A DNA stretch of 64,000 nucleotides from an uncultured virus (IMG/VR IMGVR_UViG_3300037067_010746) (IMGVR_UViG_3300037067_010746); one strand, 5' to 3'; positions 48,620 through 64,000 are shown, counted from the stretch's first letter. A program made the numbers and translations. Notes: generated by a model not told the origin, from the letters alone.

Positions 48620-48632
48620 TAATAAAAATATC

Positions 48633-49601: not shown

Positions 49602-50307
49602 TCCAAGTTTTAATATATTCAACAATTTCAATATATTTCATTAATCTTAATTTCGAATATATTTCATAATTTAATTCAGCAAAGCTCCCCATGTGGGAGT
49701 TTTCTGTTTTGCGTTCGTGTTCGATATGCCAAAGATTATATTTTAGATATTTAATTTTTAATAAAAGTCTTCGAGCTCTTTCATTCCTTTCAAAATCTTC
49801 ATATCCCCAACCTTTCATCGTTTCGTTTTCTCCACCAATAGATAGAAATTTTTCTTTATCAGCAAAATATAAACCTCCAACAGAACCTTTCCATAAAATA
49901 GGATAATTTTCTTTAAATGTTTCTTCAGTAATTCCAATAGTTAAAATATCTTTAGGAATATTATACATATTTACAAAATAAGGAACTGCATAATCATATC
50001 CTTCTTGTAATGCGGATATAGAATCGACATAGTTTTTCTTAAGAGTAAACACATCTGTATCATTTACACATATATATTTTGTTGTAACGAATTTTACAAC
50101 TTCATTAATTAATTTTGTTTTATAATTAAATTCTAAAGATGGAGATATGAATTTTGAAGCATCAAAATCATCTATTTCATTAGTAGTACAAGAAACTATT
50201 ATATTTACAGCACCAATACTTTTTAAGTAGTTTATTATAAAATTTACATTATTTTTTCTATCTTCTGAATCTTTTTGATATGGGATAATAAATGTCGTGT
50301 CTTTCAT
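49591..50307 (-). CDS. GT-A glycosyltransferase (GT2/GT7 C-terminal type)
   Basis: TFIIPY N-terminus, DxD motif (NDTDV), GGENETMKGWGYEDFE and WHIEH. Confidence 0.85.
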   Translation of the reverse strand: MKDTTFIIPYQKDSEDRKNNVNFIINYLKSIGAVNIIVSCTTNEIDDFDASKFISPSLEFNYKTKLINEVVKFVTTKYICVNDTDVFTLKKNYVDSISALQEGYDYAVPYFVNMYNIPKDILTIGITEETFKENYPILWKGSVGGLYFADKEKFLSIGGENETMKGWGYEDFERNERARRLLLKIKYLKYNLWHIEHERKTENSHMGSFAELNYEIYSKLRLMKYIEIVEYIKTWIKA

Positions 50308-50328
50308 GATTATAATTTTAAATGATTT

Positions 50329-50362
50329 AAAAAAATGGGGAAAAGATTAAATCTTCTCCCCA
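50329..50362 (-). terminator. Rho-independent terminator on the minus strand
   Basis: The minus strand reads TGGGGAGAAGAT-TTA-ATCTTTTCCCCA followed by T7. Confidence 0.8.
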
Positions 50363-50380
50363 ATAGTTAAATAAAAACAA

Positions 50381-50716
50381 CTATACTACTTTGAAATCAT
50401 CATATAAAGAATTAATTTCAATATTTTGCAGTTTAAATGTATTTTCTTTGAATTGTTCTGGATGTTGATATGGATTAATAAGTATAAATTTCGCATGAAT
50501 CTTTTTAGCATATTCATTACAATCCTTACTATCTTCACACATATTATGATGTTTAGAACATAATCCCATTAATAATTCAATTATATCTTTTCCTTCACCT
50601 CGTTTTTCAAGATGATGTATTCCTCCTGTAGCCGGGAGTCCACATACTTCACAATAATGATGTTCATTAGGGTAAATGTCGAAATGATTTTTATATACTT
50701 TAGTATGATTAAACAT
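50381..50716 (-). CDS. HNH endonuclease-like protein
   Basis: CEVCG...GIHH...LMGLCSKHH. Confidence 0.7.
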   Translation of the reverse strand: MFNHTKVYKNHFDIYPNEHHYCEVCGLPATGGIHHLEKRGEGKDIIELLMGLCSKHHNMCEDSKDCNEYAKKIHAKFILINPYQHPEQFKENTFKLQNIEINSLYDDFKVV

Positions 50717-51074
50717 TTCCTACTTCTAATATTTCGCCACAACCAATAATAAAATCACCTCTTTTAAGAATAACTTCTAATCCATTAGAATAATTTCGTG
50801 TTCCTTCATCAAACATATTATCAACTCCATAAATATAATGGCCTAAATATCTACAAATAAAATAAGGTCTATCATCTCCATATCCATTTACAATATGAAT
50901 TAAATCATAATCTTTTAATGTTATACCATCCTTTTGGTACATTCTGGATTTAATCCATTTTGAAGGTTTACGATATTCTTCTTTTTTCTCACCAGTAATC
51001 ATTACATCAAAAGGTAATTTGCTTAAGTTTAGATGTAAGATCTTTAATCCGGAATATTTAACTTGTTCTATCAT
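50709..51074 (-). CDS. ASCH (PUA-like) domain protein
   Basis: LHLNL...FD.M.TGEKKEEYR...W..R and NGY, matching the ASCH GxKxxExR signature. Confidence 0.75.
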   Translation of the reverse strand: MIEQVKYSGLKILHLNLSKLPFDVMITGEKKEEYRKPSKWIKSRMYQKDGITLKDYDLIHIVNGYGDDRPYFICRYLGHYIYGVDNMFDEGTRNYSNGLEVILKRGDFIIGCGEILEVGNV

Positions 51075-51708
51075 AAATTTTATTTTTTAATTGTTGTAAT
51101 TCCGGAGTCCATAAAGTAATAATTGCTCCTGGTTTATTTGAATCTACATGAAATCCTAAATACTCAGGCATGAATCGTAATACATCATCATCTTTATAAT
51201 ATCCATTTTCTGTCATCATATCTGCTAAAATATGAGAAGCATTATTGTAATCAAATATTCGTGCAGAACTACGAATAAAATAAAAGAATACTCTATAAGG
51301 CAATTGTTTTCCTTCTATAAGCTTTTCCCATATAACAAGATTTTTCTCAAATGTTTGTTTTTGTTCTTGTTGAAATGATCTTACAGGTTTACTTGGTTGT
51401 AAGGAAGCTATTTTATGTCTAACAGCAACTTCTCCACATTTAGAACAACGCCAAACGCCATGATTATCTTTCTGCATTAATCCACCTTTAGTAAGACAGC
51501 ATACCGACTTCTTAGTTGGAATCTGCATAATCTCCTTGCTATTTTTTAATGAAGGAGTATTTGTTGGAATAAATATAGCTTTGTTATTTTTATGTAGCTC
51601 TCTTAAATAATTAACCATTTCTTGATTAATTATTAATTGAGCTTTCATTAAATCATTATCTGATAATTTAGATAAATCTATATCATCATTAAACATTTCT
51701 TGTTGCAT
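51058..51708 (-). CDS. RusA-like Holliday junction resolvase with Zn-ribbon insertion
   Basis: PSLKNSK, FDYNN, LADMM and DDD acidic motifs; inserted CC...CSKC. Confidence 0.65.
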   Translation of the reverse strand: MQQEMFNDDIDLSKLSDNDLMKAQLIINQEMVNYLRELHKNNKAIFIPTNTPSLKNSKEIMQIPTKKSVCCLTKGGLMQKDNHGVWRCSKCGEVAVRHKIASLQPSKPVRSFQQEQKQTFEKNLVIWEKLIEGKQLPYRVFFYFIRSSARIFDYNNASHILADMMTENGYYKDDDVLRFMPEYLGFHVDSNKPGAIITLWTPELQQLKNKIYDRTS

Positions 51709-51709
51709 A

Positions 51710-52036
51710 TTATTTATTATTTATTAAAAATTCATATAGATCAGAAGAGGTTTTCATTGAAATAATTGTTCCATCTTTATATCGTGCGATTAATTTTAAA
51801 TGATCCTTGCCAAAATTAATGTCATAACAAAACCAATTAATCCATTTATTTTCTTTATCATTAAACTCTTCTTCTAAGATATTAAATATCGATAAAGTCA
51901 AAATATGGTTATTTGGTAATAAGTTTGCAGTAAATGCATCTGGGAAAGCTGCTCCTATCTTATGAGAAAAATCGATATCACAAGTTAATTGAATCTCTAA
52001 AGCTTTTATTGTTTTTATAAACAATTCTTTTGTCAT
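51710..52036 (-). CDS. Hypothetical protein
   Basis: 108 aa, tightly packed; contains WINWFCYDINFG and DLYEFL. Confidence 0.65.
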   Translation of the reverse strand: MTKELFIKTIKALEIQLTCDIDFSHKIGAAFPDAFTANLLPNNHILTLSIFNILEEEFNDKENKWINWFCYDINFGKDHLKLIARYKDGTIISMKTSSDLYEFLINNK

Positions 52037-52037
52037 T

Positions 52038-52358
52038 TTAATTTATTTTAATAAAATTTATTATACGTAACATCTCTTGTTTTATATGACGATTTTTAAT
52101 CATCGAGATATTTATTGATTTATTATTTGTATTTAGAAGTAAAATATAAAATAAATTCAATTCTACTGTAATATCTAGAATAAGAGGATATTTAAAGGAT
52201 CCACTATCAATACAATATATAGCCAAAGAAGCGGACTCCTTTGGACTACATAGTATTGCATTAAATATATTACTTGTCCATACATCATAACCTCCACATT
52301 GACCAGAATAATATTGATCAAGAACGCCATTGTAAATTACATGTGTTTCTTTATCCAT
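52038..52358 (-). CDS. Hypothetical protein
   Basis: 106 aa, abutting both neighbours. Confidence 0.55.
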   Translation of the reverse strand: MDKETHVIYNGVLDQYYSGQCGGYDVWTSNIFNAILCSPKESASLAIYCIDSGSFKYPLILDITVELNLFYILLLNTNNKSINISMIKNRHIKQEMLRIINFIKIN

Positions 52359-53942
52359 TTAAAAAAGTGTTTGTTGTTCTCCAATTTCTAATAATCCGGA
52401 ATGTTTTTGTTTCTTAGGTACATCTTCACCATTTTGTTTTCGTTTCCAACTATCCCATTCTTTTGGAGGTAACCAATTTTTTAATTTAGTTGCACGAATA
52501 TTGAATTGTTCCCAAAGTTTCTCATCTTTAAATTCAAGATGCATTGTACCTTTCTTAAAGAACTTAATATTGAAGAATGTTGATTCTAATGTATTATCAA
52601 ACTTATCTGATGTTTTTACTTTACCTAAGACTTCAAATTTTCTATCAAGAGCATAACTTATAGTGAAAATATTTTTGATATCTTGTCCTGTTAAATAGCA
52701 CATACATTTATCAATATCTTCAAGAGAACCTTTCATTTGATAATTAATTGAGAACGTATCTCCATAAATAGATAAATCATGAGAAGATGAATATTGACCA
52801 TATTTAATAGTATGAGGAAATATTACTTTCTTATTTACTTTCCAACAGTCATTAGTTTTCCAACCCTCTACATGGTTTCTATTTTCAGGATAGTGTCTAG
52901 TCATTAAATCAAAAGTATCTTCTAAAGCCTGGTCAAGAATCATTGATGAGTTATTAATAATATCATAAATTACTTTATAAATATTCTCTTTCGTGAAACT
53001 CATTTGAGATTGTTGACTTATGAATTTTTGAAAGTTATTACGAACTCTTTCAGTCATATATTTTTCAATGCCGGATTTAGATAATGCAAAAGTCCATGAA
53101 GCTGTTTTTATTTCATCAACAAAAATATTAAAACTATCGACACCTTTAAATCCAGCATCATTTGCCATCTTAATAATATTAGTATAGTTATCAACAATAC
53201 CATTTGAATGATATTCTAATTGCTGACAAGCTCTCATCCAATTTATATATGCAGTTTTCATATGCTCATATTGACCAACAATGCTTTCAATTATATCATA
53301 TACTTGAATTCCTGATATAGATTCTTCATTTAAATCATTGCAAGTAAAAGCCGCTTCTTCATTTTCAAATGAGAAGTCAAATAGAGGCTTTTTAGCAACT
53401 TTCTTTAATCGAACGATAGAAACATTAACATTTGTTTTTCTCTCTGCATTCGCGAAGCAATCACCTAAATGTTCAACACTTCCATGTTCTGAAATAAGAT
53501 TTGCTAAAAGTTTTCTTGTTCCGTTAAATGGATTAAGAATTGTTTCGCTATTAAGTAGGCATACTATATCTCCAGCATAAAGAATATCCCAAGCATGAAG
53601 TAGATGTTCATCTCCATTAGCAAAAGGAGGATTCATTAAAATCATTTCAAATAGAATATCAGTAGAAGAATAATTTAAAAAGTCATCTCCTATTAATCGC
53701 GTATTTGATTTACTTTTAAGAATCTCTTGAAGATTATGGTCTATTTCAAGAGCATAGAATTTTGGTTTATTGTAATCAGTTCTACTACAGATATATTCAA
53801 TTATATCTCCTTTCCCTGCCGATGGTTCTAATATATGTTTCGGCAAAATCCACCCAGAATATCGACTTCCATTTTTTTCATATGGAGTCAACATTTTATG
53901 AATTATATTAGGTGGAGTAGGATAGAATTGTTCTCCAAACAT
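52359..53942 (-). CDS. SAM-dependent DNA (N6-adenine) methyltransferase with DUF4942-like C-terminus
   Basis: QFYPTP, motif I ILEPSAGKG, motif IV MNPPF, and C-terminal FFNIKFFKKGTMHLEF. Confidence 0.85.
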   Translation of the reverse strand: MFGEQFYPTPPNIIHKMLTPYEKNGSRYSGWILPKHILEPSAGKGDIIEYICSRTDYNKPKFYALEIDHNLQEILKSKSNTRLIGDDFLNYSSTDILFEMILMNPPFANGDEHLLHAWDILYAGDIVCLLNSETILNPFNGTRKLLANLISEHGSVEHLGDCFANAERKTNVNVSIVRLKKVAKKPLFDFSFENEEAAFTCNDLNEESISGIQVYDIIESIVGQYEHMKTAYINWMRACQQLEYHSNGIVDNYTNIIKMANDAGFKGVDSFNIFVDEIKTASWTFALSKSGIEKYMTERVRNNFQKFISQQSQMSFTKENIYKVIYDIINNSSMILDQALEDTFDLMTRHYPENRNHVEGWKTNDCWKVNKKVIFPHTIKYGQYSSSHDLSIYGDTFSINYQMKGSLEDIDKCMCYLTGQDIKNIFTISYALDRKFEVLGKVKTSDKFDNTLESTFFNIKFFKKGTMHLEFKDEKLWEQFNIRATKLKNWLPPKEWDSWKRKQNGEDVPKKQKHSGLLEIGEQQTLF

Positions 53943-53943
53943 A

Positions 53944-54111
53944 TTAATTTATTATTTCTTTTTGTAACACATCGAGATTATCAATAATATAATCTTTTAA
54001 TTCGCCAAAACATTTATTATTTTCATATAACCAAAGTAAATACGTTGCTGGTATATTCGCAAGTTTTATTCCTTTGTATTTTCCAAATGTTAAAATTGTT
54101 TCATCATCCAT
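53944..54111 (-). CDS. Small DUF3820-like protein (55 aa; absent from supplied ORF track)
   Basis: Manual translation MDDETILTFGKYKGIKLANIPATYLLWLYENNKCFGELKDYIIDNLDVLQKEIIN has the FGKYKG...P..YL.W motif. It exactly fills the gap. Confidence 0.8.
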   Translation of the reverse strand: MDDETILTFGKYKGIKLANIPATYLLWLYENNKCFGELKDYIIDNLDVLQKEIIN

Positions 54112-54571
54112 TTTTTAATAATGTATTATTTAATTCGAGTAATTCTTTACAGGTACTATTGAAATTGCTGCATCCTTTATAAATATAATGATTAGTAGAT
54201 ATAGAAGAAAATATATATTCATCTGAAATATTCATTAATAATTTTAAATCAGATATCATTAAATGTTTGTCTTTCGTAGCTTCGCTTATCCATCCTATTA
54301 ACTCTTCAATAAATGATTCTCTATTAATAATACAATATTCGAATAAATCTTCTTCTCTTATTTTTTCAGCAATTTGAATATTATTAATTTTATCATCATC
54401 TAAAATATATTGGATTTCATATAATTTATTATATGACTCTTCATTTGCGATAAAATGCTTTATTGGAGTTCCTATTATTTTATAATCCCAACATTTAGAT
54501 TCTAAATATTGAATTAATTCTTTATGTTCTTCTCTAGAACAATTATGTGGATCTATATATATTTTATTCAT
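54104..54571 (-). CDS. Hypothetical protein
   Basis: 155-aa ORF in the packed minus-strand block. Confidence 0.6.
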   Translation of the reverse strand: MNKIYIDPHNCSREEHKELIQYLESKCWDYKIIGTPIKHFIANEESYNKLYEIQYILDDDKINNIQIAEKIREEDLFEYCIINRESFIEELIGWISEATKDKHLMISDLKLLMNISDEYIFSSISTNHYIYKGCSNFNSTCKELLELNNTLLKNG

Positions 54572-54601
54572 AACAATTAAAAGCTATTAAGTCTAATTTT
54601 T

Positions 54602-54745
54602 TCAATTACGATATTGATTTCTTATATTATTTTCAGTTGTATGTTTCCCTCTACTTTTATTAGTTAAATAAATTAATTGGGTTACAACTTCATCTTCAGA
54701 AAATGTATCTGAATATAAATTATTTAATTCTTTTTCTTTATTCAT
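54602..54745 (-). CDS. Small hypothetical protein (47 aa; absent from ORF track)
   Basis: ATG at 54745, 3 nt after the upstream stop. Translates as MNKEKELNNLYSDTFSEDEVVTQLIYLTNKSRGKHTTENNIRNQYRN*. Confidence 0.45.
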   Translation of the reverse strand: MNKEKELNNLYSDTFSEDEVVTQLIYLTNKSRGKHTTENNIRNQYRN

Positions 54746-54748
54746 AAC

Positions 54749-55087
54749 TTAAATTATGATTACATCTTTCGGATCAAATGAACGAAATATTATTTCTTTA
54801 GTATTAGTTATTTTAATTCCAACGAATTCAGAAATAATAAGAATATTATTTTGTAAATGATATCGAATACGACAAAAGAATGAATATCCTATTAGGTCTT
54901 TATACCACCACATATTGCTTTGACAAGAAACGACAATTATAGAACAATAATATTCATTACTTTTTCTCTTTTGTATGTATGGATTATCATAATATGAACT
55001 TTGGATTAATAAATTAATATTATCTACTTCAGAATTAAAAATTTCATCCATTTCTTTTTCAATTCCTAATGCTTTATAATTAGTCAT
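54749..55087 (-). CDS. Hypothetical protein
   Basis: 112 aa; contains WWYKDLIG. Confidence 0.6.
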   Translation of the reverse strand: MTNYKALGIEKEMDEIFNSEVDNINLLIQSSYYDNPYIQKRKSNEYYCSIIVVSCQSNMWWYKDLIGYSFFCRIRYHLQNNILIISEFVGIKITNTKEIIFRSFDPKDVIII

Positions 55088-55328
55088 TTTTAATTTCCCA
55101 TAAATGATGACAGAATGGATGCAGATTTACAAACTCACTTTTCGGAGGGAATATCTGAGCCATATAAATATTATCTGGTAGGAATTTATACCTAGCCTCT
55201 TTTATCTCTTTATAAGATGGTTGATTATTAGGAGTGCTAATAGATAGATGCCATTTACCATTATCTTTAGTAATGATTATACGACATCTACCCATTCGAA
55301 ACACTCCTTCAGTAAAATTAGTCGGCAT
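55080..55328 (-). CDS. Conserved small phage protein with His-rich motif (DUF7694-like)
   Basis: WHLSIS...PSY.E....R..F......Q.FPP...FVN.HP.C.HLW. Confidence 0.7.
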   Translation of the reverse strand: MPTNFTEGVFRMGRCRIIITKDNGKWHLSISTPNNQPSYKEIKEARYKFLPDNIYMAQIFPPKSEFVNLHPFCHHLWEIKND

Positions 55329-55539
55329 AAGTAATATTTCTTATAATAGACCAAGTACATTTATATGTTCTTTTACCAACATCATATACTCTAATTGTTC
55401 CATTAGTTTTTCCATTAGAGAATTCTCTAATAATTTGAAATTCCGCATTATTATATAATACGACTTCATGTTTTGGATCAATTTCAGGCTCTTTGTCATC
55501 AGACTTCCAAGAATACGTTAGTGTTAATGTTCCTTTCAT
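55318..55539 (-). CDS. Hypothetical protein
   Basis: 73 aa, overlapping both neighbours. Confidence 0.55.
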   Translation of the reverse strand: MKGTLTLTYSWKSDDKEPEIDPKHEVVLYNNAEFQIIREFSNGKTNGTIRVYDVGKRTYKCTWSIIRNITYAD

Positions 55540-56087
55540 TATAAATTGAATTTTCTAATTCTTCGATACCAAGGTAATTGATTATGAGAACAAACTTTCT
55601 TAACAGTATCTCTAAATCTTTCAGTTATTTCAGTTAATTGTTTTTCTAATTTCTGAATATTAGAAAGAGCATGTATCATTTCGTTTTTCAATTCAATATT
55701 AGTATCTTTTTTACCAATATATATAGCAATCCAATCAGAAAGTTCTGCAGCAATATCAACACGATTACCACCATTTTCTTTTCTTTTCTTTGAACGACCT
55801 CGTACTTTGATTTGAATACCTTTATTTTTAAATATTCGAAGTAAATCTATAAACTCCCAGCCTTCACGTGTATTTGGCACAGAGAAAGATTGAGTACCAT
55901 TAGATGATTTCATTTTTGTTATCCATTCTACATCAGTTATAGAAATTTTTACAAAAATTGGTCTTCCATTATTTAATATAGCACTTTGTCCTTCTACTGT
56001 ATTTACTGTAGGAAAAGAAATTGCTCTATATTTTATGTCTTTATATTTAAAGATATCTCCGATTGTTTGTCCGTTTACTGTTCTCAT
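55539..56087 (-). CDS. Hypothetical protein with C-terminal coiled coil
   Basis: 182 aa, TAATG-coupled. Confidence 0.6.
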   Translation of the reverse strand: MRTVNGQTIGDIFKYKDIKYRAISFPTVNTVEGQSAILNNGRPIFVKISITDVEWITKMKSSNGTQSFSVPNTREGWEFIDLLRIFKNKGIQIKVRGRSKKRKENGGNRVDIAAELSDWIAIYIGKKDTNIELKNEMIHALSNIQKLEKQLTEITERFRDTVKKVCSHNQLPWYRRIRKFNL

Positions 56088-56197
56088 TAGTTTTTTCGTT
56101 TTAAATTCATAGATTGTACTATATCAGGTATTATTAATATATGCTGATTATTTTTACTAATATAATCTGTTGTATATTCTTTAAAATTTTCTATCAT
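56087..56197 (-). CDS. 36-aa micro-ORF (absent from ORF track)
   Basis: MIENFKEYTTDYISKNNQHILIIPDIVQSMNLKRKN*, with TAATG overlaps at both ends. Confidence 0.55.
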   Translation of the reverse strand: MIENFKEYTTDYISKNNQHILIIPDIVQSMNLKRKN

Positions 56198-56955
56198 TAT
56201 TCAATTTTTACAGGGTTAACACTCATTTCAGCAAGATTTACATATACTCCTTGAAATGTAATAAAGTAATTTTTTAATAAGTTCCATAACATTGTTGCTC
56301 CAAAAGGAATAAGACTTGTATTAATAAATAAATCTTGTTCAGATAAAGCAGCTGCAAGAGAACAACTTGGAGTATCGTCTCCATCATCAGTTAAAGAAGG
56401 ATACATGTCAATTATTGTTTTAAGTTTACCGACAGTATTATCAACAGCTTTAGGTTGCGGAATATCTTTAAATGTGCCCAGAATTACTTGGCCGTGAACT
56501 TTCATATTTCCAAAATCAAGAAAATAATGTGGCTCATCTTCTTCTCGAAGTGATTTATTCTTTTTCGAAAACATATTATGAATATCATGTCTAGTTTTCG
56601 CATTATCCACACAAGAAATAATAATATTAGCCCCACCAAATTGCTCTTGTGGATATCTATTTGTTTTAAATTCCCATTCAGTACCAAAAAATCGATTACA
56701 ACGATCAATAAGTACTTGAGCTTTATATTTTCCAATATCTGAAGTAGAAAATAATTGTCTACCTATATTTGAAAGTGACACCTTATCTTTATCAAAAACT
56801 GTTACAACTAATCCTTTACGTTCAAATTGTAATAAAGCATGATGTATTCGAGCCAATGCTGTAAGCATTTGGCTACCCGTTCCACCTACACCAATTAGGT
56901 GAACAGATATTGGATGTAGATCAAGTAATAAGCCTGCCGGCAGAAAGTGTTTCAT
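56197..56955 (-). CDS. PRTRC-system ThiF-family (E1-like) ubiquitin-like activating enzyme
   Basis: LIGVGGTGS, D.D.V..SNIGRQLF, ISCVDN, LDFGN and the PRTRC-type PSCSLAAALSEQDLFIN (Cys codon at 56362-56364). Confidence 0.9.
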   Translation of the reverse strand: MKHFLPAGLLLDLHPISVHLIGVGGTGSQMLTALARIHHALLQFERKGLVVTVFDKDKVSLSNIGRQLFSTSDIGKYKAQVLIDRCNRFFGTEWEFKTNRYPQEQFGGANIIISCVDNAKTRHDIHNMFSKKNKSLREEDEPHYFLDFGNMKVHGQVILGTFKDIPQPKAVDNTVGKLKTIIDMYPSLTDDGDDTPSCSLAAALSEQDLFINTSLIPFGATMLWNLLKNYFITFQGVYVNLAEMSVNPVKIE

Positions 56956-57634
56956 TTGCGATGTTTTTTAATGTTCCTATAAGGAAATGTTCTTTAAATT
57001 CATAGTTATTATTTTTCCACATATCTTCTGCTTCAATCAAACGTGTCGTTCTCCACTCTCTAAAATAAGAGTTCCAGAAGCTTTCTAATGTTTCATTAAT
57101 AATATCATTAGCATCAGATAATTCTGCTCTCTTAACGTTTCCCATGCACACTTCTCCTGCATCATTAATATTAGGAAGTCCTAAATGATACAATAATGTT
57201 TTACTACCATTCCATTTTTTATATGCAAAGACATGAAGTGCTTTATTCTCATAAAAAAATACTATTCCTGGAACTTTATATTTTTTAGTTTCAAGTTTAT
57301 TGCAATCTTTTGTAAAAAATATTTTTCTTATTTTAGATGCATCATAGAATATCATTTTAACATCTTGTTTATTGACATTGAAATAAAATAAATTATTTGG
57401 TACCTGACCATTTATGGAAACAACTGGTTTCTTTGATGGATTTATTTTTTTAATTACCTTATAATTTTCCAATACATCTTTAATCAAATCGTAAGAAAAC
57501 ATACGAGCTGCTTTTATTTTATTTTGAATAACTGGATGATATTCGATATGATGATTGCCACAATCTGATTTGTATACAGCAAGTACCATTGTTAATAAGA
57601 TATTCTCATTAATTGTTTTTAAATCTGGTATCAT
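56921..57634 (-). CDS. PRTRC-system protein B (prokaryotic E2 family D-like)
   Basis: VPGIVF, LHVFA, LYH..LPNI...GEVCMGN (Cys codon at 57146-57148) and FWNSYF. Adjacent to the E1. Confidence 0.85.
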   Translation of the reverse strand: MIPDLKTINENILLTMVLAVYKSDCGNHHIEYHPVIQNKIKAARMFSYDLIKDVLENYKVIKKINPSKKPVVSINGQVPNNLFYFNVNKQDVKMIFYDASKIRKIFFTKDCNKLETKKYKVPGIVFFYENKALHVFAYKKWNGSKTLLYHLGLPNINDAGEVCMGNVKRAELSDANDIINETLESFWNSYFREWRTTRLIEAEDMWKNNNYEFKEHFLIGTLKNIANETLSAGRLIT

Positions 57635-58742
57635 TATAAATTTTGTTTTGAGTTATCATACTTAATTCTTGAATAATATTTATAAGAGTTTCTGGAGGAG
57701 TTCCGATTGACTGAGAATCAGCGGTGATCATATTTGTTACTAAGAAATCATTAACTCCACAATTATTCGCATAATCATCAATTAATACAGAAATTTCTTC
57801 AAAATACTCATCATTTTGACTCCAATAAATTGCACAATTTGAATTAGCATCTACGCCATCATCATTTGTTTGTGGCAATGAAGGAATATCTATATTTAAT
57901 TCTACCAATTGAATAACAAGATGCACAAATTGTAAAGCAATCATGTCATACTTAAGTTCAGTATAACGTTTTTTCATTTGGTCTAATCTTTTCTTACAAT
58001 TAAGAACATCTATTTTTACGTTATAAAGATTTTGCACTAATGGAGCAATTTTCTGAACATATTGTTTAATTATTGTATTTCGACATTTAATATTTAATTT
58101 AAGGGACTCAAGATATTCAATAGTATAAGAATTTTTATTTATTTCATACTCTTCGATACACGCATTATCATCTTCATTCTGACACATAAGATAATCTAAA
58201 TGCGATTCCATCCTATAATTAAAATCAGTAGGATAATTAGACTGCAATAGTAATGCAAGAACGTCCTTACATAAATTTTGTAATTTTCTATCTTCTAATT
58301 TCCATATCCAATTTATAAAAATACCATTAAATTCTCCATTTAATCCATAACATTCATAATATATAATTGTTTTATAATCATTATCAAATCGATAAGATAA
58401 AAGCATTTCATTTTCATCGATAGAATTAACTATCCATTTGACTACATCAAAAATAGTATCGCTTTTAGACCACATTTTATCTTCCACTCCAGGAATATTA
58501 ATAAAAGTATTATACATGTTACTAATTGATAATTTTACTTCTTCTTTCGTATAATTATCATAACATTCTTTTTCAAACAACGTTTCATCTTTTGACTTTA
58601 GATCATAGGGAGAACAAATTCGCTTTTCGTTCTTGCAATTTCTTGTGGCTCTTTTATTTGAGTGTTTAAGTATGTGTTTAGAATTTGAGCGAATTGTTTC
58701 CCTTGAGATCTTAGTACTTGAGATGTTTCTCCACGTTTCCAT
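57609..58742 (-). CDS. PRTRC-associated protein, positional equivalent of protein F (start uncertain)
   Basis: 377 aa between the Ubl and E2 genes. The assignment is by synteny; the first 50 aa or so overlap another ORF. Confidence 0.55.
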   Translation of the reverse strand: METWRNISSTKISRETIRSNSKHILKHSNKRATRNCKNEKRICSPYDLKSKDETLFEKECYDNYTKEEVKLSISNMYNTFINIPGVEDKMWSKSDTIFDVVKWIVNSIDENEMLLSYRFDNDYKTIIYYECYGLNGEFNGIFINWIWKLEDRKLQNLCKDVLALLLQSNYPTDFNYRMESHLDYLMCQNEDDNACIEEYEINKNSYTIEYLESLKLNIKCRNTIIKQYVQKIAPLVQNLYNVKIDVLNCKKRLDQMKKRYTELKYDMIALQFVHLVIQLVELNIDIPSLPQTNDDGVDANSNCAIYWSQNDEYFEEISVLIDDYANNCGVNDFLVTNMITADSQSIGTPPETLINIIQELSMITQNKIYNDTRFKNN

Positions 58743-58816
58743 GTTATCTTCTCAATATCATTTATAACATCAAGTGTTGTTCTAACCTTTTGTTCCTGTT
58801 TGTTGCGAGAAGACAT
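58598..58816 (-). CDS. Possible overlapping small protein within the PRTRC operon
   Basis: 72-aa ORF overlapping the Ubl 3' end and the F-like 5' end, with a protein-like amphipathic sequence. Confidence 0.4.
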   Translation of the reverse strand: MSSRNKQEQKVRTTLDVINDIEKITWKRGETSQVLRSQGKQFAQILNTYLNTQIKEPQEIARTKSEFVLPMI

Positions 58817-58997
58817 ATGTTATCTTATCATTCGAAATTTTAGGTTCGCCTATTGTTGCATTTATCAACTCCGGATGAGCTTGAGTATAATGTTCTTTTA
58901 CTTTTTGTGGAGTCCAACTTGATTCCGGATCCGGTAATAAAGTTATTTTACCATCTTTCTCAAAAGAGAATTCGCGTTTTAATATTTGTAGTTCCAT
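58782..58997 (-). CDS. PRTRC-system protein C (prokaryotic ubiquitin-like modifier)
   Basis: 71 aa; L.R.F...LPDP...TP..V...Y...PEL.NA.I, ending in GTKG-stop. Confidence 0.9.
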   Translation of the reverse strand: MELQILKREFSFEKDGKITLLPDPESSWTPQKVKEHYTQAHPELINATIGEPKISNDKITYVFSQQTGTKG

Positions 58998-59962
58998 TAA
59001 AATATAGTGTTTTCTGATTCTGCAATTGGTTCGACATCTTCATTATTATTTTCTTCTTCTAAAGATTCAGGAGTATCAAATATTGTTGGACCAACAACTT
59101 CTTTTGGTTTTTTAGGAATCTCTGCTTTAACTTTTGCTTTTTCTTTTGCTTTTTCTTTCTCCATTTGAGATTGGATTTTAGCATCGGCAACAGATTTCTC
59201 ATAATCAGCAATTTGTGTTGTCACATTACTTACATGAACTAATCCTTGAGTTAATAAAGTTATCATTTCAGTATCCATTTCGATAGGAGTACCTTTAAAT
59301 GTCATTGGAGGTAAAGCTGTTTTGAAATCTTGATCTCCAATTTTCGGTTCAGGATAAATAGAAACAATACCAATTGGACCTTCTTTGTTGATAATTATTT
59401 TTAATCCAAGAATATCTGGAATAACTTGAAATAGATTTCTAAAGAAACTACTTTCTCCATTAGGTACTTCAGTAGAATATATAACAACAGCTTTTGCAGC
59501 AATTAGAGCTTTTTCTAAAAGAACATTATCTTTTTGAAGTTTATCAATAGTAACTGCATCAAGTTTAGATTGTGAATCATCTTGAGTAGTAATAAATTCT
59601 TTTGCTTCACCAAGATCTTTAAATAATAAAGCATTATCATCTTCAAGTACTTTTATTCGAGCATCTTTTTGAGCTAATTGAACTTCTAATTGCTGACAAG
59701 CTTTTGTCATTTTATTAAGAGTATCTTCCATTTCTGCTTGTACTGAATCAGATTGATTAGAATCTTTGCCTGCTAATAATAAATCATAAGCTTTCTTTAA
59801 TTCAACTCTTTCAGTTAGCTGTATTGCAATTATTTCAAATCGTGCTTTTACACATTCAACGGCATATTCTTTTGCTTCATCTTGATATTTATTATCTAAG
59901 ATGTCCGATACTAAATCTCTTGTAGTAGTAGTATCTATTTGTTCTTTAATTATTTCAGTCAT
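58997..59962 (-). CDS. PRTRC-system protein E with N-terminal coiled-coil extension
   Basis: The C-terminal half FF..LF...VSIYP...LPPMTFKGTPIEMD is followed by a Lys/Glu-rich tail. TAATG-coupled to the Ubl. Confidence 0.8.
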   Translation of the reverse strand: MTEIIKEQIDTTTTRDLVSDILDNKYQDEAKEYAVECVKARFEIIAIQLTERVELKKAYDLLLAGKDSNQSDSVQAEMEDTLNKMTKACQQLEVQLAQKDARIKVLEDDNALLFKDLGEAKEFITTQDDSQSKLDAVTIDKLQKDNVLLEKALIAAKAVVIYSTEVPNGESSFFRNLFQVIPDILGLKIIINKEGPIGIVSIYPEPKIGDQDFKTALPPMTFKGTPIEMDTEMITLLTQGLVHVSNVTTQIADYEKSVADAKIQSQMEKEKAKEKAKVKAEIPKKPKEVVGPTIFDTPESLEEENNNEDVEPIAESENTIF

Positions 59963-59963
59963 T

Positions 59964-60218
59964 TTATTTAAAATGTTGATTATATAGAAATTCTGGCATA
60001 TATATTTTCTTTTCTTTAACTTTTACGTATTTAGATAATATATATGCATACTTGTTATTAATACAAATTAAAATTTGCTCGTTGTTTTTATTAATTTCAG
60101 TTAAGACTTCTCCTTCATAGAAAATATCTTTTACTTCTTTTTTTGAGTTCTTAGAATTCATATTCCAAGCTAATTCTTGTTGAACATCAAACCAAGTATT
60201 AGGATTTAATACGTACAT
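59964..60218 (-). CDS. Hypothetical protein (possible small SH3-like barrel)
   Basis: 84 aa abutting PRTRC-E; FYEGEVL...YAYILSKYV. Confidence 0.5.
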   Translation of the reverse strand: MYVLNPNTWFDVQQELAWNMNSKNSKKEVKDIFYEGEVLTEINKNNEQILICINNKYAYILSKYVKVKEKKIYMPEFLYNQHFK

Positions 60219-60240
60219 ATTCTTAATTTAAAGACAGAAT

Positions 60241-60268
60241 AAGCAGTGGACTATAAAATCCACTACTT
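60241..60268 (-). terminator. Intergenic hairpin, possible weak terminator or processing site
   Basis: The minus strand reads AAGTAGTGGA-TTTTATAG-TCCACTGCTT, followed by an imperfect U tract (ATTCTGTCTTT). Confidence 0.5.
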
Positions 60269-60282
60269 AAACTGAATTTATT

Positions 60283-61131
60283 TTAAAACATCACTTGAGC
60301 ATCTTCTACACCTAAACCTACATCCTTTAACATAAAATCTGTAAATCTATAGTTTCGTTCAGCTACTATTATCATATCCATCTTATCATGCTTGATTAAG
60401 TCAGTTCCAAGATTATATAAATCCCAAGCTGATTTTATTTCAGCATCATTATCTTTCTCAATATAAGCACCTGTAAAGGCACTTACTTGTGAAACATTTA
60501 ATGGAGCAACAATATTATTATTATTGCCGTCAACAGCTTGATAAAGCAATTTACCTATCATGTTATTGATAGCATCTTTTTGTACAGGAATACTTTTAAG
60601 CCCAGTAATTAAATTATCATACTTCTTACTTTTATCTTCCATGCCAGTAATCCAATTTTCAACAAGTCCTAAAGCTTGTTCATATTGTAGTTTGCCATTT
60701 CCATAGGTAGATAAAATATCACCACGAAAAGCAGTCATTCCATTAGTACAAATTAAGACAAGTTTACCAGTAGACATAGTAATACCTTTTTCAGTAATAT
60801 CTAATCTAATTTGCATAGTATCTTCTTTGGTCTCATATTGAGGAAATGTAATAATACCAGAAGTTCTTAGCATTGTATATGCTTTAATATTATGTTTCCC
60901 AACATAAGGTTCTAAGTCTTCATTATAAAGAGCATTTTTTCCACCTTGACAATGTATTGGTAGCATATTATAAGTAATATTATGCTTTTCTAACAACTCT
61001 AATGTATCAGCATATACACGTTGAGGTTCTACTATATGTTTACCGTCAGCATTTTTTAATTTTGCTGTTGCATTAAGTTCTTCGAGGTTTATTTCCTCGT
61101 ACTTGTTTTTGAATGTTAAAATTTTATCCAT
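60283..61131 (-). CDS. DUF932-family protein
   Basis: VLICTNGM signature and C-terminal SAWDLYNLGT. Confidence 0.8.
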   Translation of the reverse strand: MDKILTFKNKYEEINLEELNATAKLKNADGKHIVEPQRVYADTLELLEKHNITYNMLPIHCQGGKNALYNEDLEPYVGKHNIKAYTMLRTSGIITFPQYETKEDTMQIRLDITEKGITMSTGKLVLICTNGMTAFRGDILSTYGNGKLQYEQALGLVENWITGMEDKSKKYDNLITGLKSIPVQKDAINNMIGKLLYQAVDGNNNNIVAPLNVSQVSAFTGAYIEKDNDAEIKSAWDLYNLGTDLIKHDKMDMIIVAERNYRFTDFMLKDVGLGVEDAQVMF

Positions 61132-61138
61132 GATTTAA

Positions 61139-62320
61139 TTAAACTTTACTATTAATTGATGCTTCACAATTTCCACCATTACTTTGATTTAAAGAACATC
61201 GAGCACATTGCTCAGGAATAGGATTTGCTTCCCATCCAAATGCTTCTTCTCTTTCAATAATAGCTATTGCTTTGCGTATACGTTCCTTCATTTCTCTTTG
61301 ACGATAATTATTATTATTCTCATCAAAATAAGTTCTCTCAACGATTTTCTCTTGTAATTCAAGAGGTTCACTTTGATATCCCCATACCCAATAAAGAAAC
61401 AGTATGTTATTATTCTTGATCATATTTAATACGTTTTCTGGTACTACGTTTATAAGATGAGGATTTAATTCAAAATCTATATCGCGTACTAAATAATGAT
61501 ACATATCAGCTTGTAGGTGATCCATAAACTTAGGAGTACCCCAACAAAAGTTTCCAAATGTTGTATTTACATTACTCGTAACCTTAACATCTATTATTGC
61601 TAAACGAAGTAATCCTTCATAAATAATAGGAGTAGGGAATAAATCGAGTTCTCCAACAAGTAAATATTTTTTACCATCCCAATGTTTGAATATATCAAGA
61701 TGTGTATTTACTCCAGTAATAATTTCAACTTGTAATTGTTGTGCCTTTTGTTTAAATCGTTCAACTTGAATTTCAAGTCTTTGTTGATCAATTCGTTTTT
61801 CTCCAATTACAGGATAACCTTTGGCAATCAACTCTAATTCTCTTTTTTTACTTAATTTCTTTCTTGGTAAATCGAGAACACGAGAAGAACCAGTAGTTCC
61901 ACCTAATACATGAGATTCAAAGAATTTTCCAGCCATCATTGCATCAGAAGAGATATCTTTGCATTTTCGTTCCATAACACATTCTTTAATATATTTAGGA
62001 CAGAATTTTTCTTCTTCTTGATATTTATTGATAAGCTTTTTAATAAGGCTTTGGCTAATTAGAATATAGCCATCTGTTATTTTATTTTCTCGCTTAGTAC
62101 GAGTATCTGGTTTTTCATCTAAAGCTCCAGGAGGAATAGCATCCGGATTTTCTTTATAGAATACTGTAGTAGATTCTTGATTTGCTTTTTCAATAAATTC
62201 ATCATCAGTTTCTTCTGTATCAAAAATCTTTCCACTAAATTCCTGTTCTTTAGCATTCTCTTGCCTACGTTGGACTATACCCTTTTCATGTATATTAGGC
62301 TTAGTTATACCATATGACAT
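61139..62320 (-). CDS. PD-(D/E)XK exonuclease, Cas4/AddB-like with candidate Fe-S cysteines
   Basis: ISQS...FCP, G..F, GELD...IIDVK, Q...Y and C-terminal CARC...C. Confidence 0.8.
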   Translation of the reverse strand: MSYGITKPNIHEKGIVQRRQENAKEQEFSGKIFDTEETDDEFIEKANQESTTVFYKENPDAIPPGALDEKPDTRTKRENKITDGYILISQSLIKKLINKYQEEEKFCPKYIKECVMERKCKDISSDAMMAGKFFESHVLGGTTGSSRVLDLPRKKLSKKRELELIAKGYPVIGEKRIDQQRLEIQVERFKQKAQQLQVEIITGVNTHLDIFKHWDGKKYLLVGELDLFPTPIIYEGLLRLAIIDVKVTSNVNTTFGNFCWGTPKFMDHLQADMYHYLVRDIDFELNPHLINVVPENVLNMIKNNNILFLYWVWGYQSEPLELQEKIVERTYFDENNNNYRQREMKERIRKAIAIIEREEAFGWEANPIPEQCARCSLNQSNGGNCEASINSKV

Positions 62321-62592
62321 TAATAATAATTGTATAAAGTTTCAGCAAACTCTAATACCTTATCAGTAGTATCGAGTTCGCATACGATTACCGACATTGC
62401 CGCTCGTCTAAGAGCAGCTTGTCGACAAATTAATGTTTCTTTATTATCACCTTTTTGAACAATCCATTTACCGAATTTATTTGAGATTTTAATAAAGTCT
62501 TTAGCAATGACAACTTGACCAAGTTTTTCACAAACTACAGCAGTTGTTTCGGTTGCTACCTGTTTACATATAGAACTATCTTTTTGATTCAT
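62320..62592 (-). CDS. Hypothetical protein
   Basis: 90 aa, TAATG-coupled on both sides. Confidence 0.6.
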   Translation of the reverse strand: MNQKDSSICKQVATETTAVVCEKLGQVVIAKDFIKISNKFGKWIVQKGDNKETLICRQAALRRAAMSVIVCELDTTDKVLEFAETLYNYY

Positions 62593-63296
62593 TAGAATGG
62601 CAAATCATCTTCATTACCAATATTTGCAAATGGATCAGGATTATCTTTTGCCTCTTCAGAAGATTTAATTCTCGGAGTAAAAGATTTTGATGAACTTGTT
62701 GTTGGCTCAATATCTTTATCTACAGAAGTTGATACATCGCCAGTTAATTGAGGAATAATGATATCTTTAACTTTAGAAATTAAGAATTCGTCAAGATCGC
62801 TATAATCGCTTTTAATTAAAGTTCCTTTTTTGTCTACGATTTTTTCAATCATAGGAGCTAATTCTTCTCTTGTATACATATATTCAAGTTTAATATCATT
62901 AGACTTAACACTTGCATTCTTATATTCTCCTTTGTTTCCAAAGTATGCAATGTAGATATTATCAAAAGAAGTTGCAGTCAGCAATCTATTAAGAATACTT
63001 CTCATTACACCATTCATTTTTTCAAATTTGCATTTAAGCCGATATCGCACTTCTGTTTCGATATCTTTTAATGTGAGAACTACAGTAGGATATACATCCC
63101 CTGATTTTTGATATTCGCCAGTACCAAACTTGATATCGATTAATTGTCCTTGAACATAATCACATTCACTTACAACTTCTCCTTTCTCTCCTTCAGCTCT
63201 GTCAAATACTTCGATGTACGCTTTATCATCTTCTTTTTTTAGATTGATAAACGTAAAGAATAGCGTTTTCCCGCCGGTTTTGTTTCCGTAAGCCAT
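62592..63296 (-). CDS. Putative single-stranded DNA-binding protein
   Basis: Beta-rich OB-like core and acidic tail ending EDDLPF; lies in the recombination block. Confidence 0.7.
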   Translation of the reverse strand: MAYGNKTGGKTLFFTFINLKKEDDKAYIEVFDRAEGEKGEVVSECDYVQGQLIDIKFGTGEYQKSGDVYPTVVLTLKDIETEVRYRLKCKFEKMNGVMRSILNRLLTATSFDNIYIAYFGNKGEYKNASVKSNDIKLEYMYTREELAPMIEKIVDKKGTLIKSDYSDLDEFLISKVKDIIIPQLTGDVSTSVDKDIEPTTSSSKSFTPRIKSSEEAKDNPDPFANIGNEDDLPF

Positions 63297-63312
63297 TTTT
63301 TTAACTTTTTAA

Positions 63313-64000
63313 TTATGATTCTAATATATTGATTGACAACTCTTGTTCACTATCGGCGATAACTCTATCCATAAAGATAATACCATTATATTGTTTTGCA
63401 ATATTAAGCAATTCTGGTAAACGAGTATTATCATAACTTTCAGCACTTCCTATAAGCCAAATTGGTAATGCTTGATTAAGATGAGCCATAAGTTTAATGA
63501 TAATCATACCACCTTCAGAATAACTAACTGAATCCTTTGTAAATGGAATATAATTATTCCCATCGACATAAAAGCATTCGCCATCTTCAATAGATATATT
63601 CTCTACTGGTAATTTATTCTCTTCAATGATTGCCTCTTTTCGTTCACGTTTCTTTTTAATATCAGCATCAAGAATTTGTAATTCGTCAAATTTAACTTGA
63701 GCAACTTTTTTATTTTCAGTATAAGATTTATCTTTAGCTTCGATATTTCTAACTGCTTCAATAAAAGCTTTACCTGATGTTATACGTTCACGAACTTTAA
63801 ATTCATTACCTAAGTCTTTACAGTTATTTACATCTTCTAATGCTTTGATATTTTTATCCTTTAAATCAGGCATAATATTTTCAAATCCTTTTAGCTCAGA
63901 TAACCGTTTTACTTTTTTTTCCTCAAGTGATTTTATTTGTTGAGTAATATCATCGATATCTTCTTTTGCTGAATCTATAAATAAATTATTTTGCAAAATT
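63313..64000 (-). CDS. C-terminal part of an SMC/Rad50-like coiled-coil ATPase (partial)
   Basis: Frame is open to the window edge. A long coiled coil is followed by signature-like VSYSEG and a degenerate Walker B region (IWLIGSAESYD). Confidence 0.55.
   Translation of the reverse strand, partial: ILQNNLFIDSAKEDIDDITQQIKSLEEKKVKRLSELKGFENIMPDLKDKNIKALEDVNNCKDLGNEFKVRERITSGKAFIEAVRNIEAKDKSYTENKKVAQVKFDELQILDADIKKKRERKEAIIEENKLPVENISIEDGECFYVDGNNYIPFTKDSVSYSEGGMIIIKLMAHLNQALPIWLIGSAESYDNTRLPELLNIAKQYNGIIFMDRVIADSEQELSINILES

Follow-up and report, generated by a model that had tools for sequence, protein, structure and literature searches.

The stretch of DNA analysed here (the window) comprises 64,000 nucleotides from an uncultured virus (IMG/VR IMGVR_UViG_3300037067_010746) and carries on its minus strand, between positions 56197 and 59962, five consecutive genes related to the PRTRC (ParB-Related, ThiF-Related Cassette) systems, which are covered by the NCBIfam models TIGR03734-03742 and were listed as operon class 6d by Iyer, Burroughs and Aravind (2006; PMC1779556). 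The initial annotation of this DNA, made from the sequence alone, had placed five packed genes there, and all five open reading frames (ORFs) are indeed present. Read along the minus strand, they are the following:

58997-59962, minus strand: PRTRC protein E homologue, 321 aa (PF19556, 60.2 bits)
58782-58997, minus strand: ubiquitin-like protein (Ubl; PRTRC_C / Prok_Ub), 71 aa, ending in ...QQTGTKG (PF14454, TIGR03738)
57609-58742, minus strand: fast-evolving alpha/beta middle protein, 377 aa, in the PRTRC_F position (AlphaFold2 (AF2) model; hhalign comparison with the middle-protein family)
56921-57634, minus strand: E2-like protein (Prok-E2_D / PRTRC_B), 237 aa, with DAGEVCMGNVK (PF14460)
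56197-56955, minus strand: ThiF-type E1 of the PRTRC ThiF family, 252 aa, with GVGGTGSQ and TPSCS (TIGR03736)

The genes follow each other closely, with a 1-nt overlap between those of protein E and the Ubl, a 39-nt gap between the Ubl and middle genes, a 26-nt overlap between the middle and E2 genes and a 35-nt overlap between the E2 and E1 genes, the last meaning that no gene lies between E2 and E1. When the five products were scanned with the PRTRC and Pfam profiles, E1, Ubl, E2 and protein E were matched and the 377-aa protein was not. The E1, a single 252-aa ThiF domain, scored 243.9 bits against TIGR03736 (cut-off 144.75, E 1.5e-72), and its GVGGTGS loop, R66/Q67, K78, D117 and Cys198 (PSCS) are invariant in 21/21 aligned sequences. 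The Ubl passed the cut-offs of both PF14454 (62.7 bits, cut-off 25) and TIGR03738 (48.8 bits, cut-off 45.95), the E2 that of PF14460 (70.8 bits, cut-off 25) and protein E that of PF19556 (cut-off 26), in this case over residues 171-289. The ATP-binding loop and PSCS cysteine of the E1, the GEVCMG motif of the E2 and the TKG end of the 71-aa Ubl had all been pointed out in the initial annotation, and each is present as described, the C-terminus of the Ubl reading GTKG.

A canonical PRTRC cassette is found in Ralstonia phage Dina (RefSeq NC_055026), whose gp02-gp07 are annotated, in order, as PRTRC E, C, F, B, A and ThiF; its protein A combines DUF2016 and Prok-JAB domains, its protein F matches alpha-hel2 weakly and its Ubl has 129 aa. 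An unnamed cluster of matching layout lies upstream of the E1 homologue of Burkholderia phage BgVeeders33. A second Prok-JAB gene of Dina (27201-27488, 66.2 bits) is located far from the PRTRC cassette, and we take it to be possibly of the tail-assembly type. The window cassette shares with that of Dina the order E, Ubl, large middle gene, E2, E1, with E1, Ubl, E2 and E belonging to the same families. It differs in lacking both the JAB/DUF2016 protein A (PRTRC_A) between E2 and E1 and the ParB component (TIGR03734), in having a Ubl that would be mature at 71 aa, in a middle protein unrelated in sequence to PRTRC_F/alpha-hel2 and in an E2 without the downstream His of the family.

This reduced architecture is not peculiar to the window. 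A profile scan of IMG/VR retrieved 251 contigs with a relative of the E1, and the best 80 of them, corresponding to 79 loci with E1s 39-49% identical to that of the window, were examined; gene order was counted over 80 loci, that is, these 79 plus one further locus. The order E-C-x-B-ThiF, where C is the Ubl, B the E2 and x a middle gene coding for 361-415 aa, was observed in 42/80 loci, and C-x-B-ThiF in 17/80. No Prok-JAB match over the cut-off was obtained in any of 49 carrier records (29 of them at least 90% complete), which gave just two sub-threshold matches of 12-15 bits, while phage Dina, used as positive control, scored 68.5 bits. Pfam scans of the 52 window genes likewise detected no JAB or ParB domain, and no ParB was found among 20 distinct neighbouring proteins scanned with NCBIfam. 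A JAB-less five-gene variant of PRTRC is thus common in Bacteroidota-type (pro)phages. Compared with other representatives (for example loci L004, L008 and L030), the window cassette shows the same architecture, the GTKG end of the Ubl, a homologous middle protein and a protein E with the same kind of motif and acidic tail (see below); it is set apart by its E1 (only 40-49% identity), by a coiled-coil extension of about 170 residues in protein E, by a His to Glu change in the E2, by its Crassvirales-type carrier and by having neither dnaN nor an integrase gene beside it.

The Ubl C-terminus is highly conserved within the variant. Among the 60 loci with a clean C-x-B-ThiF run it reads GTKG in 55, GVKG in three, GKKG in one and GTKA in one, and the Ubl is accordingly predicted from its sequence to be translated already mature, with a free C-terminal Gly. 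In the E2, Cys163 and Asn155 are invariant in 61/61 sequences; Asn155 sits 8 residues before Cys163, a spacing that is presumably that of the eukaryotic HPN...C motif. Position 193 is occupied by Glu in the window (FWNSYFRE) and by His in 57/61 family members (motif FW.SEFSH), including the E2s of Dina and BgVeeders33, and there is no His between residues 163 and 216 of the window protein. The only two close relatives of this E2 (36-37% identity) carry the identical FWNSYFREWR, Glu included. A few Bacteroidota-type E2s, those of loci L004 and L011, are also devoid of the family His and show FSS and FAS at the site, so that this residue is not universal outside the clade of the window either. 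Table 1 of Iyer 2006 (row 6d; PMC1779556) gives an absolutely conserved His C-terminal to the E2 Cys, proposed to be part of the active site, so that the window E2 is missing a defining feature of class 6d. The fixation of Glu193 in its clade and its conservation favour an active site that is altered yet functional over one in decay. The cassette as a whole also appears to be maintained rather than decaying, since its five frames are open and the FWNSYFREWR motif is common to relatives that are only 36-37% identical. The assignment to a PRTRC-type E1/E2/Ubl cassette made in the initial annotation therefore stands at family level, to which must be added the absence of JAB and ParB and the loss of the E2 His, features on which it had not remarked.

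The 377-aa product of the third gene is the most elusive member of the cassette. It had no match in Pfam or NCBIfam (both even at E values up to 10), nor in PHROG or PADLOC; a word-seeded search of 5.8 billion proteins returned only the protein itself, and an exhaustive HMMER search of 1.84 billion representatives returned five relatives, with 28-35% identity. When a profile of these six sequences was compared by hhalign with that of 60 IMG/VR middle proteins, the match reached 97.9% probability (E 3.6e-13, 253 colinear columns), the control profiles scoring 0.1% (E2) and 1.2% (E). The designation as protein F in the initial annotation has to be abandoned, as TIGR03742 and PF14456 both failed to match the 377-aa protein, and comparison of its profile with the F proteins of Dina and BgVeeders33 gave a probability of 0.1-0.6%, the F profile being built from two sequences only. 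Given the 97.9% match to the family of the variant and none to F, the gene is best seen as the variant's own middle protein, which, as judged from sequence comparison, is equivalent to PRTRC_F by position only. Row 6d of Iyer 2006 also lists a rapidly diverging helical protein (PMC1779556). The AF2 model of the 377-aa protein (pLDDT 85.9, pTM 0.77) found nothing at E 0.001 or better in the PDB with Foldseek (best 0.34) and no usable match in the ESM Atlas; a wide VIA-align search gave a best Z of 7.7 for a helical hairpin of 48 residues, a value that is ordinary for helical models.

Protein E is organized as an N-terminal coiled-coil extension (approximately residues 1-170), which is not covered by any other row of the 46-row family alignment, followed by the conserved alpha/beta core (171-281) and a linker rich in Lys; after these come the motif GPTIFD, which contains F295, and an acidic tail with ...ENTIF as its end. 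The F295 column is at least 90% conserved in the alignment, and the motif appears in other E proteins as QNSLF, QTSLF, PTLFD or GNMFG. The pattern [STGN][LMI]F was present in the C-terminal half of 51/56 unique E proteins, compared with 3.0 expected from shuffles. Several E proteins terminate at the motif, and most others, including that of the window, run on into an acidic tail. The motif resembles what we take to be the clamp-binding pentapeptide, QL[SD]LF. The AF2 model of protein E has a mean pLDDT of 73.2 (85-96 in the core), and Foldseek retrieved nothing from the PDB at E 0.001 or better; a few small alpha/beta proteins (HPF/YfiA, T7 Gp1.2) were considered as fold matches and set aside, their E values (0.12-0.42) being too weak.

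Regarding the origin of the cassette, 1648 E1 relatives were retrieved at E 1e-10 or better. The seven closest (55-69% identity) lie on contigs of 5.9 kb or less, and the remainder, at about 42-52% identity, have source names that are all from Bacteroidota (Bacteroides, Tannerellaceae, Cytophagaceae, Chitinophagaceae, Mucilaginibacter). A metagenome scan with a profile of the close E1 clade gave nothing above 49% identity. A quick maximum-likelihood tree of 114 rows was built from the window E1, its seven close relatives, every fourth protein of the series P0009-P0120 and the unique IMG/VR E1s, with two proteobacterial phage E1s as outgroup. In this tree the window E1 and its seven close relatives form one clade (support of 96 in the Shimodaira-Hasegawa-like approximate likelihood-ratio test, SH-aLRT), which falls within the Bacteroidota-type radiation, the branches that place it there having support of 80-92. 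Such topology fits acquisition from a Bacteroidota-type pool followed by rapid divergence. A different arrangement was observed in L003, an IMG/VR record of a large phage (147,679 bases, with terminal repeats) that has a match at 8001-8231. It encodes a protein of 501 aa, the ThiF-like region of which shows 38% identity to residues 17-91 of the window E1; relatives of E2, Ubl or E were not found near this gene, which may represent a fused or different E1 system.

The usual carriers of the variant are not crAss-like. Crass_capsid was found in 0/49 carrier records (a control fragment of the phage studied here scored 66.1 bits), and a Terminase_6N-type large terminase (TerL) in 18/49, 13 of them over the cut-off; many of the records are classed as proviruses or have terminal repeats. 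Taken together, these features mean that real tailed (pro)phages outside the crAss-like group are among the usual carriers. The HK97 capsid and TerL_ATPase models, with matches in 2/49 and 1/49 records, respectively, were poor markers, and a search of 80 carrier records with the TerL protein of the window, run without a positive control, gave no match.

The window itself belongs to a divergent Crassvirales-type phage. Its genes include matches to Crass_capsid (PF23898, 65.6 bits), CrAss_Ring_1 (PF24228, 66.8 bits) and crAss_MUZ (PF25731, 83.8 bits), for which the cut-off is 27 in each case, and its plus-strand arm encodes a holin, an amidase, TerL (phrog_6681, E 1.2e-48), a portal and a major head protein, with TerL, portal and major capsid PHROGs of crAss type. 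The crAss-like carrier proposed in the initial annotation is hence borne out by capsid, ring and muzzle families as well as by these PHROGs. A tblastn search of 50,697 phage records with TerL matched 100 records, none of them reaching 60% identity; the hits are to crAss-like phages of Bacteroidota only, and the top ones listed, from Flavobacterium FpV-type, Bacteroides crAss-like, Cellulophaga and Azobacteroides phages, are 24-27% identical, which places the carrier in a distant crAss-like lineage. IMG/VR relatives of the phage itself consist of a 28.7-kb fragment without the cassette region and one 5.8-kb contig with a TerL 42% identical. The plus-strand arm also contains a single 6892-aa ORF (24892-45570), which we take to be the giant virion protein of Crassvirales; searched against Pfam in five pieces, it gave AAA_30 as sole match, below threshold (23.7 bits, cut-off 27; residues 1380-1500 of the first piece). 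The coding strand flips from plus to minus at about 49.6 kb, where the sign of the skew in guanine versus cytosine (GC skew) also changes, with a cumulative maximum at 48-50 kb.

The physical continuity between cassette and phage was checked in four public sequencing runs, drawn from three studies of groundwater (2022) and landfill (2018); these runs contain 95-100% of the sampled words of 54500-61500. Contigs from assemblies X1, X3 and X4 (three studies) traverse both cassette junctions with 0 differences, so that the chimeric join with a bacterial element contemplated in the initial annotation was not observed. The X1 contig (20,641 bases) spans 50335-64000 and continues for 6975 bases beyond, the X3 contig (6490 bases) spans 54396-60941 with a 56-bp skip outside the cassette, and X4 contributes pieces covering 54832-56396 and 57846-60157. 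Proteins identical to the E1, the E2 and the middle protein are known from 3-4 contigs, of which the longest measures 84141 bases. The skip, at 54785-54842 and inside a 112-aa ORF (54749-55087), is seen in the landfill X3 contig only and looks like a strain-level deletion. The X1 assembly breaks at 50335-50364, close to the strand switch. Over 16 kb (48000-64000) the groundwater 2022 and landfill 2018 assemblies show only four single-base differences, which is unusually little divergence for this phage across habitats and years.

The immediate surroundings of the cassette in the window comprise the following features:

60240..60269, minus strand: terminator-like hairpin of 13 pairs followed by a T-run, between the 282-aa and 84-aa genes (consensus match only)
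59964-60218, minus strand: 84-aa gene that stops 1 nt before the protein E gene (ORF; sub-threshold hSH3 match)
60283-61131, minus strand: 282-aa protein, upstream neighbour (weak DUF932 match, E 0.011, 15.9 bits, cut-off 23)
61139-62320, minus strand: PD-(D/E)XK phage-type nuclease (PDDEXK_1/DUF3799, Cas4-like), 393 aa (atlas features and structure)
52359-53942, minus strand: 527-aa protein with a DNA methyltransferase-like N-terminus and DUF4942 (114.4 bits), downstream of the cassette (several PHROGs)

The 84-aa gene may be the first of the cassette's transcription unit. The terminator-like hairpin lies directly upstream of it and is probably the upstream boundary of that unit, which would therefore begin at the 84-aa gene; consensus matching gave five terminator-like sites in the region, compared with 2.2 +/- 1.5 in shuffled sequences, and the number of sigma-70 promoter sites did not depart from chance (50, with 53.1 in shuffles). 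The only library match of the 84-aa product, hSH3, scored 20.5 bits, below the cut-off of 25.7, and no relatives of it were found among 82 loci searched. The 282-aa protein has one relative, in one IMG/VR locus. The nuclease is encoded two genes upstream of the 84-aa gene and was recognized by its atlas features (score 0.96-0.97) and by structure (TM 0.80-0.81, depending on target); it ends in a Cys-rich region (...CARCS...GGNCE...) and has no Pfam or NCBIfam match. PDB sequence searches with the 393-aa and 282-aa proteins returned chance-level rows only. The setting of the cassette in the window is thus one of DNA metabolism. A "partitioning cassette" reading, as used in a paper on a related element (PMC13366799), was rejected for this locus, where no ParB is present.

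Among related elements, those of loci L004, L007, L008 and L030 have the cassette within a set of replication genes, after DnaN and before initiator or helicase genes, in the order tyrosine integrase, DnaN, cassette, HNH protein, initiator-like protein, DnaC-like ATPase, DnaB. DnaN exceeded the TIGR00663 cut-off in three of these loci; the tyrosine integrase was detected in L008 and L030, the HNH protein and DnaC-like ATPase in L004, an initiator-like Lin1244_N or DUF6291 protein in L004 and L030, and DnaB in L007 and L030. Overall, dnaN is found up to 5.5 kb upstream of the cassette and on the same strand in 25/79 loci.

Considered together, the data indicate that the cassette is probably an intact and vertically maintained member of a JAB-less, ParB-less, five-gene PRTRC variant of operon class 6d, residing in the DNA-metabolism arm of a crAss-like phage. 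By analogy with the families involved, the E1 would adenylate the Ubl at Gly71, with no prior trimming required since the protein as translated already ends in GTKG; the Ubl would then be passed as a thioester to E1 Cys198 and next to E2 Cys163, to be finally joined to lysines of target proteins. Within the cassette such tagging would be one-way, since a JAB peptidase is encoded neither in the window nor in related elements. Protein E and the middle protein would choose or hold the targets. DNA replication or recombination is the likeliest arena, in view of the replication genes that flank the relatives, of the PD-(D/E)XK nuclease encoded upstream in the window and of the conserved C-terminal motif of protein E, and we tentatively propose that tagging is directed at one of these processes. 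In this scheme, the (S/T)(L/I/M)F motif and acidic tail of protein E would act as a peptide by which the protein docks on the sliding clamp or on some other component of the replisome. A more specific form of the proposal, according to which PRTRC-type cassettes are replisome-directed Ubl ligases whose protein E docks on the beta sliding clamp or another hub, with the E2 then attaching the Ubl, irreversibly in the JAB-less variant, to the clamp or to clamp-bound proteins, is speculative and in our view unlikely to hold as stated. Complex prediction was run, without controls, for DnaN and protein E as encoded side by side in locus L081; its scores of 0.08 and 0.02, against a mark of 0.32, speak neither for nor against binding.

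Several points weigh against this interpretation. Two of the family assignments fall short of the NCBIfam cut-offs, protein E just barely (TIGR03741, 36.0 bits, cut-off 37.95) and the E2 by a wide margin (TIGR03737, 62.7 bits, cut-off 131.45), and the chemistry of an E2 without the class 6d His could be different or impaired. The genome extends for about 20 kb outside the window, including at least 6975 bases beyond position 64000, and this part might hold JAB, ParB or dnaN. The apparent nesting of the E1 depends on the branches of 80-92 support in a quick tree. As for the link to replication, dnaN adjoins the cassette in just the 25 of 79 loci mentioned above and none is visible in the 64 kb of the window; the likeness of the protein E motif to the clamp-binding motif is a tentative one, and the roles given to protein E and to the middle protein are guesses, because neither has a recognisable fold. 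Finally, literature searches found no biochemical data on any PRTRC system.

Among the other possible functions, one is that the cassette serves counter-defence or host takeover, by tagging and disabling host defence proteins, proteases or replication factors. A role of this kind had been suggested in the initial annotation, where the targets named (host defence, proteolysis, the phage's own recombination proteins) and the early/middle timing are conjecture. That the cassette is borne by this phage and by many (pro)phages agrees with such a role, as does the very fast, arms-race-like evolution of both accessory proteins, exemplified by the handful of middle-protein relatives (five) among 1.84 billion representatives; in addition, a preprint on a prophage of Phocaeicola vulgatus reports PRTRC protein B to be a hotspot of recurrent mutation (10.64898/2026.10.01.756045). 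There is, however, no information on targets, and the steady neighbours of the cassette in its relatives are replication genes and not anti-defence genes. Only E1 and E2 match PADLOC defence models, and they do so at superfamily level: the matches to Cap2 of CBASS type II (an antiphage signalling system based on cyclic oligonucleotides) are partial (25.9 bits for E1 and 13.7 bits for E2). The Cap2/Cap3 system, in which Cap3 is a JAB and a CD-NTase is encoded alongside, shares with the cassette the ThiF-type adenylation domain and an E2-like Cys domain, but Cap2 is an E1-E2 fusion that conjugates the cyclase itself, with no separate Ubl, whereas in the window E1 and E2 are separate genes and neither a cyclase nor a JAB is found. 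A counter-defence function is considered a minor possibility.

Rather less probable is a role in competition between phages, similar to that of the Bil system (BilABCD), in which the cassette would tag structural proteins of rival phages or elements and so protect the cell of its carrier. Many carriers are proviruses, where exclusion genes are common, and both systems have a Ubl, an E2 and an E1 and no E3; for Bil, conjugation has been demonstrated, according to PMC11601596 and PMC10557695. Nevertheless, the Bil E1 has an inactive and an active adenylation domain in tandem (IAD-AAD) plus a Cys domain and is accompanied by the JAB peptidase BilC, unlike the single-domain, 252-aa E1 of the window, which has no JAB at its side. 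The best PADLOC BilD match to this E1 reached 19.1 bits and covered residues 12-127 only, that is, the nucleotide-binding region. Moreover, the cassette is placed inside replication modules and not in moron or defence-island positions, and exclusion would be a less obvious need for a crAss-like phage in whose window no integrase was detected.

It is quite improbable that the system is not a protein ligase at all, with E1 and Ubl acting as a sulfur-carrier or acyl-adenylate pair of the ThiF/ThiS or MoeB/MoaD kind next to a non-catalytic E2-like partner. The E1 does match ThiF and MoeB models, with up to 44.3 bits, which is far under their cut-offs, and the E2 has no family His; yet the invariance of Cys163 and Asn155 in the E2 family speaks for catalysis, and no sulfurtransferase, rhodanese or cofactor-biosynthesis gene was found among the 52 genes of the window. 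The idea that a bacterial or mobile-element block was mis-joined to a phage contig during assembly, which could be suspected from the Bacteroidota PRTRC proteins being the nearest named relatives of the E1, can be practically dismissed, given the contigs of three studies that cross both junctions without breaking at 56197 or 59962, the recurrence of the exact E1, E2 and middle proteins, the GC content (guanine plus cytosine; 0.286) similar to that of the flanks and the genes' common orientation and overlaps with neighbouring phage genes.

The Bub operons (BubABCD) offer a last term of comparison. They are found on mobile elements and their biological role is unknown, and they are characterized by a peptidase-E1 fusion without the catalytic cysteine, as a section heading states, and by a multi-domain Ubl (PMC11601596). 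The window E1, on the other hand, retains Cys198, and its Ubl is a single beta-grasp domain. We take the Bub operons to be operon class 6e. In the portions available, the mechanistic papers on Bil and Bub (PMC11601596, PMC10557695) treat CBASS, Bil and Bub only.

PRTRC cassettes had been presented in the initial annotation as systems known mainly from plasmids and integrative elements, a view that understates phages: that of Dina is annotated, 251 IMG/VR contigs carry E1 relatives and two papers deal with prophages, namely the preprint on P. vulgatus and PMC13366799, which describes a PRTRC cassette in a Burkholderia gladioli prophage and says that its function is unstudied. The other remark of the initial annotation, that such a cassette had not been characterised in Crassvirales, agrees with our literature searches, in which no published report of a PRTRC cassette in Crassvirales and no paper bringing together Crassvirales and ThiF were found; the papers checked among those naming both crAss-like phages and ubiquitin-like proteins were, in their available parts, unrelated to the PRTRC cassette. 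Phage-borne PRTRC is thus not new, and the window cassette is a divergent member of a catalogued kind, preceded by other phage cases. Its distinguishing features are the Crassvirales-type carrier from groundwater and landfill, the clade-fixed His-to-Glu change of the E2 and the extended protein E.

The field of bacterial E1/E2/Ubl systems has been very active since protein conjugation by CBASS Cap2 and by Bil was demonstrated in anti-phage defence, while PRTRC, catalogued as class 6d since 2006, is a system on which no experiment was found in the literature. Being compact and protease-less, with a ready-made Ubl and junctions confirmed in three studies, the window cassette lends itself well to reconstitution as a minimal system. 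Should the link to replication be true, it would provide a first function for PRTRC and an instance of ubiquitin-like control of the replisome outside eukaryotes. If, beyond this, the ligase proved to be docked on the clamp, it would be a bacterial and phage counterpart of the ubiquitination and SUMOylation of PCNA, through which mobile elements and this phage would take over or protect replication forks.

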